DNA of 64,000 nt from the sequence record PQ356294.1, one strand, 5' to 3'. Within the stretch, counting starts at the first letter, position 1. Each line of letters opens with the position of its first letter. Source of the stretch: Escherichia phage Ec_YwIITB1. A model generated the notes under the pieces. That model was not told the DNA's origin. It was given only the letters and a program-made list of their open reading frames with translations, and ran no database searches. Positions 1,802 through 28,765 of the stretch are shown piece by piece. Made by a program: the position numbers and the translations under genes.

Positions 1802-2761
1802 TCACTTCCACTGCATTTCGCATGCTAATTGAATGAAAAGATATGCTAAATGTAATTCAGTATTAGCCGCAATTCCATGATACTGGTTATTTTCACCAAC
1901 AATTTCATACATACGAATAATACTTTGCGGAGTTACACGTGTATAGATTTCTTCGGCAAGTTTACCTACGAACCACGAATAATCAGCTGCATATTTTGGC
2001 GCTAAAGCTCTGAGCTGTTTAACATCTTTATTTTTGAGAGACTCAAGAACATCATCAATAGCACCACGATCGTTAGTAACCAGTGATAAAATACCAGCAT
2101 CCAAAACACCTTTAGATGAATAACTATCGAGCTCACCAATAGTTTTACGAAAATCCGGAAAATTCTTTTTAACCAAAGCTGCTACAACTTTCATATCAGC
2201 TATAGCAATTCCTTCATGCTTGCAGATTTCAGTCAATCGACGAATCATCTGCTTCATCATTTCAATTTTATCTTCATCAGTCGGTTGACCGAACGTAATA
2301 ACTCGGCAGCGTGACTGAAGCGGTTTAATAATACCATCAATATTGTTAGCAGTAATAATAATACTGCAGTTTGAACTATAAGCTTCCATAAAGGAACGAA
2401 GATGTCGTTGAGACTCTGCTAGCCCTGAACGGTCAAATTCATCAATAACGATTACTTTTTGACGACCATCAAATGAAGCTGCACTAGCAAAATTAGTCAA
2501 AGGACCACGAACGAAATCAATTTTACAGTCTGATCCATTCACAAACATCATATCAGCATTTACATCATGACACAATGCTTTTGCTACAGTTGTTTTACCT
2601 GTTCCTGGAGAAGGAGAATGAAGAATAATATGTGGAATCTTACCTTTACTTGTAATAGATTTAAAGGTTTCTTTATCAAAGGCGGGAAGAATACATTCAT
2701 CGATAGTAGATGGACGATATTTCTGTTCAAGAATGTGTTCTTTTTCATTTACAGTAATCAT
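1802..2761 (-). CDS. 44: clamp loader ATPase gp44
   Basis: Walker A GTGKT; start trimmed to ATG 2759-2761 (MITVNEK, 319 aa) with GAGGA RBS; ORF-track start is upstream. Confidence 0.9.
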
Positions 2762-2792
2762 AATTTCCTCATTCAAGTTTTAGTGTAAATTT

Positions 2793-2808
2793 AAGGGCCG
2801 AAGCCCTT
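2793..2808 (-). other. UUCG-tetraloop hairpin between genes 45 and 44
   Basis: aagggc-cgaa-gccctt inverted repeat in the 45-44 intergenic region. Confidence 0.4.
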
Positions 2809-2810
2809 TA

Positions 2811-3497
2811 TTAAAAGTCGTGGGTAGAATCAGCTTCAAGAGCTACTACATAATTCGCGTGTTCACCTTCAAATTTAGCAGCGCCTTGTTTGCCTTTTGC
2901 CCAAAGCAGAAGTTTATAATTTCCTGGTTGCATTTTCATATTTGCCATATTGATAATGAAATTAAATGTATTTTCACCGTCATAATCACCAAGAGTCAAA
3001 GAATATTTAACACGGGTCAAAGCAGAATCTTCTACTTTATTAAAACCGTTAATTACGATTTTACCTTCTTTTACTGTGATAGCAATTGTATCAATCTGCA
3101 GACCACGAGATACACGCAACAGTTGTTGAAGGTCTTCAGCTTTAATTTCAGTAACAACAGATGCTACCGGGAATGGAATTGGTTTATTAGGAGCCACTAC
3201 TGTGCTCGGATCAGCTGCTGGCCAAAAAATTGTTGAACGAGCATCAGCGATTTTAATATTTCCATCTTCTGACTGGGAAATTTCTGCATCGTCATTAACT
3301 AAGGACAGAATACCGAGAAAACCGTTCAAATCGTAAATTGCTACATCAAAATCAATAGTGTCAGAAATATTTGCTTCCGCATAAGTTGTACCATTAACTG
3401 CGCGAGTCATAATAAATTGACCAGATTTAAGCATAATGCCAGAGTTAATAGTAGCGAAATTTTTAAGCAGAGCAGTAGTATCTTTAGACAGTTTCAT
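2811..3497 (-). CDS. 45: sliding clamp gp45
   Basis: 228 aa ORF, T4 gp45 length and order. Confidence 0.9.
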   Translation of the reverse strand: MKLSKDTTALLKNFATINSGIMLKSGQFIMTRAVNGTTYAEANISDTIDFDVAIYDLNGFLGILSLVNDDAEISQSEDGNIKIADARSTIFWPAADPSTVVAPNKPIPFPVASVVTEIKAEDLQQLLRVSRGLQIDTIAITVKEGKIVINGFNKVEDSALTRVKYSLTLGDYDGENTFNFIINMANMKMQPGNYKLLLWAKGKQGAAKFEGEHANYVVALEADSTHDF

Positions 3498-3552
3498 GTA
3501 ATTTCCTTCAATTCAAGTGAGATTTAATTTTATAACTAATTTAATAAAGCAA

Positions 3553-9672: not shown

Positions 9673-10213
9673 ATAAAAAATCCAAACTAGGAGAATCGTC
9701 TACAACACTTTTCTTTTCAGCCCCCGGTGTTCTATAGGTTGATTCTTCGTAATGCGTCATTTTATCGTAGATGTCTTGAATAAAAGTTTCATCCACTAAC
9801 GCAACCATATCGTCGTCACGACTGTCATAGACATTGTGAACGAAGTAACTGTATTTCTTTGCAACTTCCTTACGTTCTTTTTTAATACGTTGGACGAATG
9901 CATTAAAACAAGCTTGAGTTATATATGCATGCGGGTTTTTATATTTCGTTTCATCAAAATTATGAAGCCCCTTAATAGAAGCTTCTATACCATCTGCAAT
10001 CATTTCTTGTTTCCAGGATTGGGTGTATCCTGAAAAGTTGAAACGTTTAGATAAGCCTTCTGCAATAAGCATAATGGCTAATCCGATAGTATCATTCTGA
10101 CGAACTACTTTATTTGGGTCTTTATTATTTGCTAATTCTGTTTTCCAATCAATAATAGCTTGTAAAAGCTCTTTATTGTTTACGTAATTATATTTAGGCT
10201 TAGTTTCTGACAT
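9656..10213 (-). CDS. 55: late sigma factor gp55
   Basis: Start trimmed to ATG 10211-10213 (MSETK, 185 aa) with GAGGTGA RBS; T4 order after a-gt. Confidence 0.85.
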
Positions 10214-10291
10214 TTTCACCTCTTAGCTCAATTCATAGATCTATTATATCATAATATTTGAAGATCTATCTTAAAGCATAGAGGATATCAA

Positions 10292-24262: not shown

Positions 24263-24296
24263 TTTATTCCCCAAATCCGTATCAGTTGATAGTTGT

Positions 24297-24326
24297 ATAG
24301 TACAATAAAGCTTTATGCTTGTAAAC
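24297..24326 (-). promoter_or_regulatory. early-type promoter module (second copy of the conserved 20-mer)
   Basis: GTTTAC at 24321-24326; TACTAT at 24297-24302. Confidence 0.45.
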
Positions 24327-24344
24327 CGTTTTGCGAAAAATTTT

Positions 24345-24374
24345 TAAAATAAAAAAGGGAGCCCGAAGGCTCCC
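24345..24374 (-). terminator. intrinsic terminator (7 bp GC stem, UUCG loop, U run)
   Basis: gggagcc-cgaa-ggctccc followed on minus strand by UUUUUU; downstream of 24377..25390. Confidence 0.7.
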
Positions 24375-24376
24375 TA

Positions 24377-25390
24377 TCATTTATAATAACTTCGGTGGTT
24401 TTCAAGATAAACCCTCTCAAGGAAGTCATCCCAGAAACCCATGTCTACTTTTTGCTGCATACCGTTCTTAGAAGCTTCAATGGATGCTGCTTCTACTTGA
24501 TCGACCACATCTTCCAAAAACTCTTGAACAGTTTTAAATGGATGTTTACCCAACTTCACGTCGAGAATAAATGGAGCGTCTTGAAGTGGATAGACTAGGT
24601 CACCAGTTTTGTAAATTTCCAATAGTTGGAGTCCACCACGACAAGCATGACTCAGAGCTTTCCAGTCAATGCCCTCATTAGCTTCGGCCTTACGAGCGCG
24701 TTCGCCATATTCAGCATCTAATTTATTCAGTGACTGCTTAAGCTCAATAAGAGAAAGTGTTGTTTGATATTTACGACCCAACACGGTGTAGAACGTTTGT
24801 GGACCTGTTTTCTCATGATTATGGAATACCCATTCACAGAATTCGTTCTCTGGAAGACGATGCTTAATATCTTCAACTTTAGTTCGACGTTGCTTAATGG
24901 AACCGTCTTCTTGGTAATCAACCCATTGCTCAGGGATTTGATTAACTACTTTCAATACATCACGTAATGCGGCCAAACGAGAACCCTTAACACCATATTT
25001 AGAAGCTTGCTTGCGAACATATCCTAAATAGGATTTCATGTTAGTCGTATAAAAACGAGAACGATTGTCTTGAATAAACTTCCATACATCAGGCAAATCA
25101 GATTTAACTACCAGTTCAGGTGGAGTGTGGAGCATATCCAATGCTACAGTTTCACCATCTGCTGCTAATTTAAAGAAATACTTAAGACTGTATAGTTCAT
25201 GGTCAATATCATCTTTAGTGTTTTTAGATGATGTGCTGTTAGTGTTTTTACTCATATGCTCTTTAACATTTCCGATAAGAATATCACGAGCAGGAGGAAC
25301 AAAGATTTCTTTAAAATCTACATCAGATTCTGGAGTAGAAGTTCCATAAAGATGACTACCAAAATAGCTTTTCATTACTGTTTTCATCAT
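24377..25390 (-). CDS. Pol-beta-type nucleotidyltransferase-fold protein
   Basis: N-terminal GS-x9-SDVD motif (YFGSHLYGTSTPESDVDF) and a downstream hDh (VALDM). Confidence 0.6.
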   Translation of the reverse strand: MMKTVMKSYFGSHLYGTSTPESDVDFKEIFVPPARDILIGNVKEHMSKNTNSTSSKNTKDDIDHELYSLKYFFKLAADGETVALDMLHTPPELVVKSDLPDVWKFIQDNRSRFYTTNMKSYLGYVRKQASKYGVKGSRLAALRDVLKVVNQIPEQWVDYQEDGSIKQRRTKVEDIKHRLPENEFCEWVFHNHEKTGPQTFYTVLGRKYQTTLSLIELKQSLNKLDAEYGERARKAEANEGIDWKALSHACRGGLQLLEIYKTGDLVYPLQDAPFILDVKLGKHPFKTVQEFLEDVVDQVEAASIEASKNGMQQKVDMGFWDDFLERVYLENHRSYYK

Positions 25391-25848
25391 TCAGCCTTAT
25401 ATTCAATAACAGGACATACTTTAGCTTTACGCGCTTTTAAAAATTCGACGATAATAGATTTCTTGGGTTGAATAGGAGGTAAACCTTTATACGCTCTATC
25501 AATATTTTCTACATGTAAAGCATAATCCTTTTTCCATTTATAATCTTTATATTTTTCATGCAGTTGTGCAGGAATAACAAATGAACCAATAATAAGTAAA
25601 ACAAGCAAAATGGCAAGTATAAATGCTGATGGAATAAGAGTCCATAAACTACCAAAAATAAGCCATTTCTGTATGATTTCTGCGCAGATGATAGTTAGAC
25701 CTGCGAGCATAGTACATCCGAATAAAGAAACGAAAAATGTAGGGATAACAATAGACCAAAAATACGCGCACAGTGTCTTAGGTCGTTTCCATTCGTCGTT
25801 AAACATTTTGAATAATTTATAATGCCAAGAGTTTTCATTAATAACCAT
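25387..25848 (-). CDS. membrane protein
   Basis: Three hydrophobic segments. Confidence 0.6.
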   Translation of the reverse strand: MVINENSWHYKLFKMFNDEWKRPKTLCAYFWSIVIPTFFVSLFGCTMLAGLTIICAEIIQKWLIFGSLWTLIPSAFILAILLVLLIIGSFVIPAQLHEKYKDYKWKKDYALHVENIDRAYKGLPPIQPKKSIIVEFLKARKAKVCPVIEYKAE

Positions 25849-25850
25849 AA

Positions 25851-26372
25851 TTATCCTTTCATTGAAGGTGTAACAGTTGTTAAATACTTAATCATAGCTT
25901 CAGCTTCTGATTTTGATAATGAAATTTCTCCATTGTTTTGACGAATAGAAATAAAATCCGGATGACGGTCACCACCAGCTTTTAAAATACACATATAAGT
26001 ATCAGTTTCATCTTCAATATCTGAAATAATTGAAGCAGTTCCACATGAATGTGGTTTTTGATAAATCAATGCAGCTTTTCTTCCACCGTTTGACTGTTCA
26101 TAAACTTTTAACACATCAAACAAATCGCTTCTTTTATCAATAGCTAAGATGTTGTTTTCATCTTCAATATTAAATCCTTCGGATACTTCATAAAGTGTCA
26201 CCCATAAATCACCTATATCGATAGTAGCATTTCCTTTTCCACGACTTTCAAGAATATGACAAATTTTCTTGATTTCGTCATAACTCATTTTAATAATATC
26301 ATCTCCTTGAATAAGGAAGATGTCATTTTTAAATTCAACACGAATTAAACCACTTCCACTTGAAATAAACAT
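25851..26372 (-). CDS. hypothetical protein, tandem paralog A
   Basis: 173 aa; C-terminal region similar to 26379..26933. Confidence 0.6.
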   Translation of the reverse strand: MFISSGSGLIRVEFKNDIFLIQGDDIIKMSYDEIKKICHILESRGKGNATIDIGDLWVTLYEVSEGFNIEDENNILAIDKRSDLFDVLKVYEQSNGGRKAALIYQKPHSCGTASIISDIEDETDTYMCILKAGGDRHPDFISIRQNNGEISLSKSEAEAMIKYLTTVTPSMKG

Positions 26373-26378
26373 ATTTCC

Positions 26379-26933
26379 TCACTTTGAAATCATAGTTGGA
26401 ATGACAGAATCGAGATAAGTCTTTAGCGCAATAGCTTCGTCTTTGGTAAATGTGACAATATGCGATCGAAAATCATCAATTTGACGAATAGTTAAGACAT
26501 CACCATCTTCATAGCATTTTGATATGTTTAAAACAGTTTCATCATTCTGATTGCAAGCGTTAGTAATAATAGCATTGCAATTTTTGAGCCATTTTAAACT
26601 ATGTTTTCTTTCATTAGAATAATAAAAATATTTAATCTTATCTATAAAACTATCCCAATGAATAACTGATAGGCATATTGACTCACTTTTAATATTAAAT
26701 CCTGGGCATGAAGAATAAAAATGAATTTTGTGCTCATCATTGATGCTTACTATTTTATCAGTATAAGGATATTCAATTTGGGTTAAATGAATGATTTCAC
26801 TAGGCGTAAAATATAGCATATCGTCTTCTTGCGTCAAACGATACATATTATTTACTTTTTCTATAGCTAATTCACCAAAAAGCGGACTAACTTCTAATAC
26901 TAATCGTTTCATATTAATCCTTTTTATTGGCAT
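26379..26933 (-). CDS. hypothetical protein, tandem paralog B
   Basis: 184 aa. Confidence 0.6.
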   Translation of the reverse strand: MPIKRINMKRLVLEVSPLFGELAIEKVNNMYRLTQEDDMLYFTPSEIIHLTQIEYPYTDKIVSINDEHKIHFYSSCPGFNIKSESICLSVIHWDSFIDKIKYFYYSNERKHSLKWLKNCNAIITNACNQNDETVLNISKCYEDGDVLTIRQIDDFRSHIVTFTKDEAIALKTYLDSVIPTMISK

Positions 26934-27192
26934 GAATTTGTTTTAAAATTTTAGAGTATTCCTTTGTATCAGATTTACGTACAATCGATACACTATAAGG
27001 CATACTATCTGTGTCTTTTATAAAACGTTCCAAATGACACTCTAACAAAATTTCTGGATTATAAATCGTGTACATCAAATTACCTGTTGCTCCACGATAT
27101 TGGCAGATTTCTACTGATTGAGCATCATTCCACAATTTTGTTAAGACTAAATCACCTACTTCTAATTTCGGAAAGCTCACATTATTCACCAA
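26914..27192 (-). CDS. hypothetical protein
   Basis: 92 aa ORF. Confidence 0.5.
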   Translation of the reverse strand: MVNNVSFPKLEVGDLVLTKLWNDAQSVEICQYRGATGNLMYTIYNPEILLECHLERFIKDTDSMPYSVSIVRKSDTKEYSKILKQIHANKKD

Positions 27193-27367
27193 TTAAAGTT
27201 TCAATATAAGAATCAAGATTTACTTTAGCTTCTTCCATAAGAGTTTTGTATTTAATCTTGTTAGCATATCCAGAGAAAGCTGATTCATCAATAACTGTTG
27301 ATGTATGAACAGCTTTACTATACATCTCAATTAATTCTCTTAATTTAAAAGCCTGCTCACTTGTCAT
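27182..27367 (-). CDS. small acidic protein, family member 1
   Basis: 61 aa; shares N-terminal T/S-x-EQ..K and C-terminal Y-I/L-E motifs with five other small ORFs. Confidence 0.5.
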   Translation of the reverse strand: MTSEQAFKLRELIEMYSKAVHTSTVIDESAFSGYANKIKYKTLMEEAKVNLDSYIETLIGE

Positions 27368-27499
27368 TACATACTCCTTTGAATAATATCAATAATGTTG
27401 TTCACCAGATTATAAGTAAACATTGGATAATTATATTGAATCATCACATACACAACAAACAAAACTTTCATTCTCTTCTCCTTGACAGTTGACAAGATT

Positions 27500-27529
27500 A
27501 CTATACCATAACCTTGCCAACTTGTAAAC
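27500..27529 (-). promoter_or_regulatory. early-type promoter (GTTTAC, 18 nt, TATAGT)
   Basis: Hexamers with sigma70 spacing in the 27368-27531 gap. Confidence 0.4.
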
Positions 27530-27531
27530 CA

Positions 27532-27705
27532 TTAAATGACGTTTTCAATAAAATTCTGAAGCTTTGTGTGAGCATCAACCATGATTTTCATTTCTTCCTT
27601 TGCGAAAGCTGTACCTCTTTCCCGAGCAGAATACTCATAATCAGAAACTGCATTAGCATATTCTTCAATTAGCTTCATTAAAAACATCTGCTTTTCAGTT
27701 TTCAT
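27532..27705 (-). CDS. small acidic protein, family member 2 (absent from the ORF track)
   Basis: 57 aa ORF MKTEKQMFLMKLIEEYANAVS...; ATG overlaps the stop of 27695..27889. Confidence 0.45.
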   Translation of the reverse strand: MKTEKQMFLMKLIEEYANAVSDYEYSARERGTAFAKEEMKIMVDAHTKLQNFIENVI

Positions 27706-27889
27706 TATTCCACCTAATCATTTCAAGATATTGAACTAACTTAGCTTTGGATTTATCCAAATCCTTTTTAGCTGCTTCTATACCATCGTATGAATATCCT
27801 TCACAATGCTCAACTGCCAATTGGTATGAATCTATTTCAATATCACGTGCTAATTTAATGATTTTTTCAAACTGTTCACGTGTTAGCAT
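27695..27889 (-). CDS. small acidic protein, family member 3
   Basis: 64 aa ORF. Confidence 0.5.
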   Translation of the reverse strand: MLTREQFEKIIKLARDIEIDSYQLAVEHCEGYSYDGIEAAKKDLDKSKAKLVQYLEMIRWNNEN

Positions 27890-27891
27890 AC

Positions 27892-28131
27892 TTAAACTCT
27901 CGTATTATGATCGATAATTTCATCAAGAAACATATCTAAAGCTTCTACAGCATTATCAACTTTAGCTTCAAGTTCTTCAGCACCTTTATTTGCAATGCCC
28001 GACGAAAACCAAGCAAAGTCACTAAGTTCCTCATCTGCTTTGCGAATTAAAGCTACCAATTCTTTAATTTTATCTGCTTGTTCAATGCTAATCATTATTC
28101 CACCACATATGAAAGAGAGAATATTGCACAC
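27892..28131 (-). CDS. small acidic protein, family member 4
   Basis: 79 aa ORF; true start may be an internal Met. Confidence 0.5.
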
Positions 28132-28283
28132 GCCATATGAGTTGCAGCTTCATCACACATATCATAACGTTTCTTAAGAAGTTCTACAAGTTCTTCACTA
28201 GTAACTTCATCCATGTCGACGAAAAAATCACCATTAATGATGACGTAGATATTTCCTTCTTGATTGAGTGCTTCAATTTTCAT
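28095..28283 (-). CDS. small hypothetical protein
   Basis: Start trimmed to ATG 28281-28283 with GAGGAG RBS. Confidence 0.5.
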
Positions 28284-28347
28284 GATGTTCTCCTCTTTAT
28301 CCGATGGTTGTATAGTATCACAGCTCAAATTGAAAGTAAACCGGTAA

Positions 28348-28374
28348 AATGAAAAAAGTCTCCCGAAGGAGACT
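28348..28374 (-). terminator. intrinsic terminator (UUCG loop, U run)
   Basis: agtctcc-cgaa-ggagact followed on minus strand by UUUUU. Confidence 0.65.
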
Positions 28375-28378
28375 AATG

Positions 28379-28765
28379 TTATTCGAGTGAAAGAAGATAT
28401 TTGCTCTGGTAAAACATCCCAGTGATATCATCTATCGTGCTTTGAATGGCTGGAGGCATTTCTTTATAAATGCTGTTAGATTGATCTAGTATGTGATCAA
28501 TCATTTTAATTGTATCGGTAGGAAGTTTACTGGCGTCTGGAATAGAAGGCGTGTATTTTCTACCAGAATACCCTAAATATTGCTCACCAAATTTATCAAT
28601 CAAATCTGGCAATTCAGAGAAAATAAAATCGTATGCTTTGTGTCTAGCATAACTTTTAGTTTCAAAATGTGCAGAATGAAAATAAGCTTGTGCAGCCATT
28701 AATAAACCTAAGTATTCATCTGCCTTTGAAGGTTTTCCACTTTGTGAAAAGTCGCTGAATTTCAT
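28379..28765 (-). CDS. hypothetical protein (rI.-1 position)
   Basis: 128 aa, directly upstream of rI. Confidence 0.6.

Follow-up and report, generated by a model that had tools for sequence, protein, structure and literature searches.

The closest described relative of the two genes analysed here, A and B, is MobD.1 of phage T4 (UniProt Y05I_BPT4), a protein of two domains (PF24449 and PF24448) that belongs to PHROG 1502. In T4, the homing-endonuclease gene mobD is located between nrdC.11 and mobD.1, and free-standing homing endonucleases have been described to displace resident genes (Edgell et al. 2010, PMC2988022). The T4 region nrdC.11-mobD.3 can be deleted on laboratory E. coli (PMC9825161), which argues for an accessory function of A and B. 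The literature on the locus comprises a homing-endonuclease review, a T4 genome-reduction paper and a 2006 genome comparison with a domain table for nrdC.10 and nrdC.11, and a functional study of the mobD.1/Y05I family was not found in the literature. Further relatives are free-standing proteins of ~70–85 aa in Tegunavirus, Gelderlandvirus and Karamvirus (PHROG 7763), which have the same C-terminal domain with a conserved [FL]TKxEAxALxxYLxxVIPTM helix and, unlike A and B, no N-terminal domain at all. Like B, they are encoded directly upstream of a membrane protein gene.

Compared to these systems, the locus described here encodes a two-domain ortholog of MobD.1 (A) and, next to it, a second protein of the same architecture (B), a deep paralog that T4 does not encode. 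The T4 mobD gene sits exactly where the analysed DNA has B and the membrane protein gene. This displacement concerns the history of the locus and not the function of A or B, and the DNA analysed here has no mobD.

The mobD.1-type gene pair and its surroundings

The window, i.e. the entire analysed stretch of 64,000 nucleotides of Escherichia phage Ec_YwIITB1, has a G+C content of ~35% and is a Tequatrovirus (T4-like) genome. Its segment 25300-27300 matched 501 phage records with 80–99% nucleotide identity, mostly from Escherichia, Shigella and Yersinia phages, and the relatives that we opened (ACG-C40, T4, T2 and MLF4) are all classified as Tequatrovirus. On the minus strand, the genes follow each other in the order tk, rI.1, rI, rI.-1, several small mobD.x ORFs, a DUF7438 ORF, a tudor-domain ORF, A, B, the membrane protein gene, nrdC.11 and nrdC.10. 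The first-pass annotation had assigned A and B to a variable region, and the small accessory genes that form a block from tk to nrdC.10, A and B among them, indeed differ between related phages. The features of the locus are as follows:

27500..27528, minus strand: candidate sigma-70/early-type promoter, TTTACA-17-TATAGT with TG (consensus match only)
27182..27367, minus strand: small DUF7438 ORF upstream of the tudor ORF; absent from T4
26914..27192, minus strand: phage tudor-domain ORF (PF24144), immediately upstream of A; absent from T4
26379..26912, minus strand (longest ORF to 26933): gene A, assigned as ortholog of T4 mobD.1 (Y05I) by ORF, start context, 85% amino acid identity to T4 MobD.1, PF24449 and PF24448, and PHROG 1502
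~26613-26912, minus strand: N-domain of A (Pfam)
~26382-26612, minus strand: C-domain of A (Pfam)
26534..26543, minus strand: arm of the 10-nt direct repeat GATGAAACTG inside A
25851..26372, minus strand: gene B (173 aa), assigned as paralog of A by ORF, both Pfam domains and PHROG 1502; absent from T4
26079-26372, minus strand: N-domain of B (Pfam)
25854-26078, minus strand: C-domain of B (Pfam)
26003..26012, minus strand: arm of the 10-nt direct repeat GATGAAACTG inside B
25392..26353, minus strand: segment replaced in T4 by the mobD cassette, i.e. B from codon 7 on and the whole membrane protein gene (blastn of the window against T4, junction alignments)
25387..25848, minus strand: membrane protein gene (153 aa, pI 9.3, two predicted transmembrane stretches; ORF, phrog_944)
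24377..25390, minus strand: nrdC.11 homolog, RlaP-family nucleotidyltransferase, next gene of the run and conserved downstream anchor of the locus
24356..24375, minus strand: terminator-like GC hairpin with T-run after nrdC.11 (consensus match only)

A and B lie on the same strand and only 6 nt apart, with the ATG of B following 6 nt past the stop of A and GAGGAAAT as its Shine-Dalgarno sequence; the membrane protein gene starts 2 nt past the stop of B. In a consensus search, the site at 27500..27528 was the sole strong match to a sigma-70/early-type promoter ahead of the gene run. The minus strand of 24300-28500 contained this one early-type consensus site and neither middle (MotA-box) nor late (TATAAATA) motifs of T4 promoters. 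Transcription of the genes as one unit, A and B included, probably begins at the early-type promoter-like site at 27528 and would probably end at the hairpin at 24356..24375.

The two ORFs of 173 and 184 aa named in the first-pass annotation are present at 25851..26372 and 26379..26933 (both minus strand), with the lengths and C-terminal sequences given there. The 184 aa refer to the longest ORF of A; counted from the ATG at 26912, the protein has 177 aa and begins with MKRLVLEV. This ATG is most likely the start of A, since it has an AAGGA Shine-Dalgarno sequence 6 nt upstream and is located 1 nt past the stop of the tudor ORF without any overlap. The RefSeq annotation of the ACG-C40 ortholog of A uses the same start.

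In order to assess how far the relationship between the two proteins extends, they were aligned over their full length as well as by domain. BLASTP aligned A and B over 176 positions with 28% identity and an E value of 9e-10, so the similar C-termini reported for the pair are well beyond chance, and the two genes are adjacent paralogs, as the term tandem duplication had implied. It had further been assumed that only the C-terminal domain is common to both proteins whereas the N-terminal regions have diverged. This part did not hold: the N-domains alone align with an E value of 1.4e-5, and after removal of the last 22 residues the alignment is still significant (E 6e-6), so that the similarity does extend past the last 20 residues, the limit set in the first-pass annotation. 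Counted by domain, 25 of 96 positions are identical between the N-domains (26%) and 23 of 69 between the C-domains (33%), and over the final 22 residues the count is 9 of 22 (41%). Both Pfam models match both proteins far above their gathering scores (24.9 bits for PF24449, T4_y05I_N; 27 bits for PF24448, T4_y05I_C): PF24449 scores 112.1 bits on B (residues 2-95) and 131.7 bits on A (residues 11-107), and PF24448 82.6 bits on B (residues 102-171) and 74.9 bits on A (residues 112-181). PHROG 1502 is likewise matched end to end by both. Based on the N-domain alignment, the two Pfam models and the PHROG match, A and B are full-length paralogs with homology over their whole length, and the C-terminal helix is simply their best-conserved part. 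Correcting the picture of a similarity restricted to the C-terminus is one practical value of this comparison. An HMM search of all window ORFs revealed no further family members besides A and B.

A shares 85% amino acid and 89.8% nucleotide identity with T4 mobD.1, has collinear flanks and occupies the same position next to mobD.2, while B is only 25% identical to T4 MobD.1. By these identities and flanks, A is the ortholog of T4 MobD.1 and B a paralog without counterpart in T4. Overall, the Y05I family is very small: a search of 1.84 billion representative proteins yielded only 24 clusters at 50% identity, and 728 phage records, all of them T-even-type, contain a member; it is confined to T-even-type phages of enterobacteria. 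Four further candidates from the exhaustive search (P0029-P0032), long proteins with many short matching stretches and E values of ~1e-4, were judged likely spurious.

B is found at 80% or more amino acid identity in 433 phage records and is 90–99% conserved across ~430 records. The comparison of copy numbers among related phages, which had been proposed for the pair, revealed both genes in ~430 of ~500 Tequatrovirus records; the exceptions are the replacement by mobD (47 records) and rare chimeras. Two copies are therefore the normal state in Tequatrovirus. A single Y05I copy was present at the examined loci of Mosigvirus, Dhakavirus and Gaprivervirus, Tegunavirus, Gelderlandvirus and Karamvirus have a gene for the C-domain only, and in Jiaodavirus this domain is truncated to 49 aa. 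As hundreds of deposited Tequatrovirus genomes already contain orthologs of A and B, and a curated Pfam family covers them, with the paralogy implicit in the databases, the two proteins are of a known kind, and the pair matters little as a discovery.

History of the locus: mobD replacement, age and recombination

T4 lacks window positions 25392-26353 and contains the mobD HNH homing-endonuclease cassette in their place, as revealed by blastn and junction alignments. Up to the junction, T4 retains the stop of A as well as the Shine-Dalgarno sequence, the ATG and the first six codons of B, all identical to the window, followed by mobD-specific sequence. Since this remnant of B is still found in T4, the single-copy state of T4 is evidently derived, B and the membrane protein gene having been lost together when the mobD cassette took their place. 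The mobD arrangement was found in 47 of ~504 records holding the junction. T4 is thus an atypical genome at this locus, and functional studies of the MobD.1 family would be better placed in a two-copy phage (T6, RB14 or a BASEL isolate), including the adjacent membrane protein gene. In the T2 record, both A and B are frameshifted; an apparent B allele of 57% identity in T2 turned out to be an artefact of these frameshifts, the in-frame pieces being ordinary B-type sequence.

B shows about equal identity (25–30%) to the A-type proteins of Tequatrovirus, Mosigvirus, Dhakavirus and Gaprivervirus. A is closer to the single-copy proteins of the other genera, with 44% identity to Mosigvirus and 32–35% to Dhakavirus and Gaprivervirus, and the membrane protein follows the same ranking (46% to Mosigvirus, 31–34% to Dhakavirus). 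From these identities we conclude that the split between A and B is at least as old as the separation of the four genera, or that B has diverged faster. The values are not those of a recent duplication, for which close copies or a variable copy number among close relatives would be expected: the copies share 28% identity and their number is mostly fixed at two.

Among Tequatrovirus orthologs, gene-wide dN/dS was 0.14–0.20 for A, 0.10–0.19 for B, 0.16–0.24 for the membrane protein gene and 0.01–0.04 for nrdC.11. The values of 0.10–0.20 for the pair are far from the range near or above 1 that would indicate relaxed or positive selection, and they imply that A and B are both kept as proteins by purifying selection. 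Together with the low identity between the copies and the high conservation of B, they speak against an ongoing diversification of the pair as suggested earlier.

Recombination has nevertheless left traces at the locus. The A protein of the MLF4 type is 46% identical to the A of the window and 69% to that of Mosigvirus HX01, while its last 27 residues are identical to the window A; judging from this pattern, the A locus has undergone allele replacement and intragenic mosaicism between genera. This is one observation that would fit the term diversification. Divergent B alleles occur in metagenomes (P0010, 57% identity). A further sequence (P0011), with contigs from three independent sequencing runs, represents a natural A::B hybrid that combines an A N-domain with a B C-domain and is the sole family member on its contig, located between the tudor ORF and the membrane protein gene. 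At the DNA level, the crossover lies within the 10-nt direct repeat GATGAAACTG, the arms of which are located 531 bp apart, in frame, in A and B. As read from these contigs, A and B can collapse to a single hybrid gene via recombination at this repeat.

Predicted structure, membrane protein neighbour and possible role

With 16 family sequences as input, AlphaFold2 modelled B at a mean pLDDT of 84.9 and predicted a b3-a-b4-a arrangement for the N-domain and b5-a for the C-domain; a model of the C-domain only reached a pLDDT of 78. Foldseek detected no significant structural match in the PDB (E ≥0.02 for the whole protein, ≥0.3 for the C-domain), and at sequence level, A, B and the family profile matched PDB chains with an E value of 0.4 at best. 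The best small-domain matches of the whole B model were SsgA/SsgB-like proteins and two proteins of unknown function (E 0.04–0.15, probability 0.87–0.97, TM 0.3–0.4), with the SsgA/SsgB matches falling on the N part (probability 0.87–0.94, TM 0.3–0.4) and being weak. Equally weak were the top matches of the C-domain, namely MoSub1 PC4 (4bhm, E 0.32), the PC4-like/YdbC-like SP_0782 (2l3a, E 1.1) and Pur-alpha repeat III (5fgo, E 1.4). Matches in BFVD at E ≤1e-3 were limited to family members, one nameless entry and one uncharacterised Bacillus phage protein.

SsgA/SsgB, Sub1/PC4, SP_0782 and Pur-alpha are sheet-plus-helix modules that form dimers or trimers, and we take their fold to be of the PC4/PUR/Whirly type. 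SsgA and SsgB are protein-recruiting factors, which bind proteins and are not known to bind nucleic acids. Y05I proteins resemble the PC4/Sub1, Pur-alpha, Whirly and SsgA/SsgB folds in their predicted repeated units of beta-sheet plus helix, and these folds provide their best, albeit weak, Foldseek matches; they differ from them in sequence and by their acidic character, so that we speak of a resemblance rather than a membership. We suspect that this resemblance is the origin of the Pfam name 'putative transcription factor'.

The repeated character is also found in the sequence itself. Residues 16-42 of B, the first unit of the N-domain, align with residues 139-165 of the C-domain (hhalign P 2.3e-5), with an internal repeat score of 26.5, whereas the scores of 100 column shuffles averaged 8.4 and peaked at 16.5. 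The underlying hairpin-helix motif of ~27 residues (xIxQxxDxIxL[ST]xxEAxxLxxxL) is common to the first N-domain unit, the C-domain and the DUF7189 mini-proteins (PF23819), which are encoded next to mobD.1 in Mosigvirus, Dhakavirus, Gaprivervirus and Jiaodavirus. DUF7189 aligns with the first N-domain unit and the C-domain at hhalign P values of 1e-7 and 2.4e-5, respectively, and its Pfam model gives a weak match on residues 16-42 of B. Unlike Y05I proteins, DUF7189 proteins consist of a single unit of ~65 aa and form a separate Pfam family, and the window encodes none of them.

In all eight Tevenvirinae genera examined, an ORF with the Y05I C-domain is located directly upstream of an orthologous membrane protein of ~150 aa, with the nrdC.11 nucleotidyltransferase further downstream. 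This upstream ORF is full-length in Tequatrovirus (B), Mosigvirus, Dhakavirus and Gaprivervirus. In seven genera, the stop of this ORF and the start of the membrane protein gene overlap by 1 nt or lie up to 21 nt apart; in Jiaodavirus, 73 nt separate them. The membrane proteins are orthologous across the genera (E 1e-17 to 1e-52) and have invariant SWH, LCxYFW and KA[KR]KxKxCP motifs as well as two hydrophobic stretches. The two protein families carry opposite charges: the Y05I proteins have a pI of 4.1–5.8 and a net charge of -3 to -27 (nine members), with A and B each acidic in both domains, whereas the membrane proteins have a pI of 9.0–9.7. The link between both genes is not obligatory. 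The membrane protein family is wider than Y05I (932 vs 728 records), T4 keeps A without the membrane protein gene, and no Y05I_C gene was detected near the membrane protein homologs of Citrobacter phage Ci1 and the Erwinia jumbo phage pEa_SNUABM_49, which weakens the idea of an obligatory partnership. The neighbourhood of the Y05I C-domain and a membrane protein in eight genera represents a testable lead.

While the identity and history of A and B are near-certain, we hold with moderate confidence the explanation as a whole, according to which they are old Y05I paralogs packed together with the membrane protein gene and nrdC.11 into an accessory adaptor module. Such a module would be dispensable on laboratory hosts. 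The more specific reading that we favour is tentative and, in our estimate, possible but rather doubtful: A and B may act as soluble protein-binding adaptors and not as classical DNA-binding transcription factors. Their conserved C-domain would dimerise (A-A, B-B or A-B) in the manner of single PC4/PUR-type repeats and/or bind the membrane protein of the neighbouring gene at its basic cytoplasmic tails, and the more variable acidic N-domain would contact a host or phage target. This reading is based on the acidic charge, the lack of a DNA-binding signature, the conserved C-terminal helix, the basic membrane protein as neighbour and the likeness to dimer-forming units. An extended version, in which a PUR/PC4-like homo- or heterodimer of A and B is docked via its C-domains on the two-helix membrane protein as a widely conserved T-even module of adaptor and anchor, possibly together with the NrdC.11 nucleotidyltransferase and the NrdC.10 ATPase, appears quite unlikely to us. 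If it were true, the loss of half of the module to mobD in T4, the reference phage, would explain why it has been overlooked.

The main rival to the adaptor reading is that A and B are nucleic-acid-binding regulators of the PC4/Sub1, Pur-alpha or Whirly type, whose beta-sheets would bind ssDNA or RNA and thereby modulate early or middle phage gene expression or host expression. We consider this unlikely. The Pfam name of PF24449 and PF24448 ('y05I-like putative transcription factor') points in this direction, as do the C-domain matches to the MoSub1-DNA structure (4bhm), SP_0782 (2l3a) and Pur-alpha repeat III (5fgo), the N-domain match to the Whirly-like SsgA/SsgB fold and the layout of two repeats in one domain plus a third lone repeat, which resembles that of Pur-alpha. 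However, none of these matches is significant (C-domain E 0.3–1.5 with a probability of 0.6 or less, N-domain E ≥0.04), the best N-domain relatives, SsgA and SsgB, bind proteins, and no helix-turn-helix or other DNA-binding Pfam model matched. Moreover, the acidic character of every member of the family would be unusual for proteins that bind nucleic acids in this way, although net charge is a crude argument.

The diversification proposed in the first-pass annotation would make A and B host-range or anti-defence factors, duplicated and diverged under host pressure so that each copy acts against a different host system; we rate this as decidedly improbable. Their position in an accessory, indel-rich early-gene block, the allele replacement and mosaicism of A, the divergent metagenomic B alleles and the loss or damage of the genes in laboratory phages (T4 without B, T2 frameshifted in both), which would fit a need on wild hosts only, are in line with it, but this evidence fits any accessory gene equally. 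The copies are old (28% identity), each is conserved (B to 90–99% in 430 records, dN/dS 0.1–0.2) and their number is fixed at two in most Tequatrovirus records. No PADLOC defence model matched A, B, the membrane protein, nrdC.11 or nrdC.10 at E values up to 1, NCBIfam contained nothing for A or B, and no published phenotype was found. Very unlikely, finally, is an import of B, in which recombination with an unsampled T-even lineage would have placed a cassette of B and the membrane protein gene beside a resident A. The equal distance of B from all A-types, combined with the closer relationship of A to Mosigvirus, Dhakavirus and Gaprivervirus, and the exchange of alleles between genera at this locus, as in MLF4, would agree with an import. 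However, a tandem duplication followed by asymmetric divergence accounts for the data just as well, the adjacent membrane protein gene tracks the phage phylogeny in the same ranking as A, and no phage with a B-type protein as its only copy was found among the 1.84 billion representatives or 50,697 phage records. The choice between duplication in place and import leaves the identity of A and B unchanged.

Independent of these readings, some product names in RefSeq and PHROGs, namely 'molybdopterin-guanine dinucleotide biosynthesis protein MobD', 'thioredoxin' and 'helicase loader', are misleading.

Remnant of gene B ahead of mobD in T4

Phage T4 (NC_000866), in which the mobD homing endonuclease cassette replaces most of B, the paralog of mobD.1 (A), retains the B start, which opens a 23-codon ORF (MFISSGTDMCYKCKAKLNETKNQ).

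T4 locus (L002) 10206-10277, minus strand: ORF opened by the retained B start, counterpart of window 26354-26372

The TGA stop codon of this remnant ORF overlaps the annotated ATG of mobD as ATGA, an arrangement by which translation of the homing endonuclease may be coupled to that of the displaced gene's remnant.

Sequence differences between A and nrdC.10

The T2 record NC_054931 (L003, locus 2416-3516) carries two frame changes in A and two in B, and the N-terminus of its membrane gene is shorter and different. In a second T2 record, A is likewise split into three pieces. Either these genes have genuinely decayed in a laboratory phage, or the differences come from sequencing errors.

The metagenome protein P0025 (210 aa) consists of the first ~50 residues of A fused to the C-terminal portion of NrdC.11. 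Such a fusion implies a deletion variant that has lost B and the membrane gene entirely, together with most of A and the 5' end of nrdC.11. Between nrdC.10 and nrdC.11, a ModB-like ADP-ribosyltransferase gene is present in ACG-C40, in T2 and in the contigs encoding P0011, a natural chimera of A and B; ACG-C40 harbors an extra DUF4031 gene as well (L001 locus 1874-2994, vs window ~24275-24376). The window and T4 are without this insert. The gene run from mobD.5 to nrdC.11 is flanked by two GC-rich hairpins with a terminator score on both strands.

Window 24356-24375: GC-rich, terminator-like hairpin
Window 28357-28374: GC-rich, terminator-like hairpin

Neighboring gene families

The family of the membrane protein (window 25387-25848) comprises 932 records and is wider than the Y05I family of A and B, reaching phages of Klebsiella, Enterobacter and Aeromonas and an Erwinia jumbo phage. 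Two cysteines, located in LCxYFW and KxCP, are invariant, and the family has no Pfam entry.

Upstream of A, the DUF7438 family (PF24219) is represented by at least four small paralogous ORFs that lie next to each other, with five to seven copies in related contigs (L012-L014).

Window 27182-27367, minus strand: DUF7438 ORF
Window 27532-27705, minus strand: DUF7438 ORF
Window 27695-27889, minus strand: DUF7438 ORF
Window 27892-28131, minus strand: DUF7438 ORF

One of them is labeled 'helicase loader' in PHROG 4859 and RefSeq, a name that looks unfounded. A tudor-domain ORF (PF24144) and one DUF7438 ORF (window 26911-27355) are absent from T4, where mobD.1 directly abuts mobD.2.

Relatives also encode DUF7189 mini-proteins, which share a hairpin-helix motif with both Y05I-family domains; the window itself lacks a DUF7189 gene.

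L006 3239-3436: DUF7189 mini-protein
L007 3290-3505: DUF7189 mini-protein
L005 2874-3164: DUF7189 mini-protein
L009 2097-2288: DUF7189 mini-protein

These genes lie upstream of mobD.1, as immediate neighbors in JS98 and VR20, and in Jiaodavirus upstream of a truncated Y05I C-domain.

Product names in RefSeq and GenBank records of relatives appear to have been propagated from gene symbols: MobD.1 and MobD.4 homologs are called 'Molybdopterin-guanine dinucleotide biosynthesis protein MobD', nrdC.11 homologs 'thioredoxin' and rI.-1 'starvation-inducible transcriptional regulator'.
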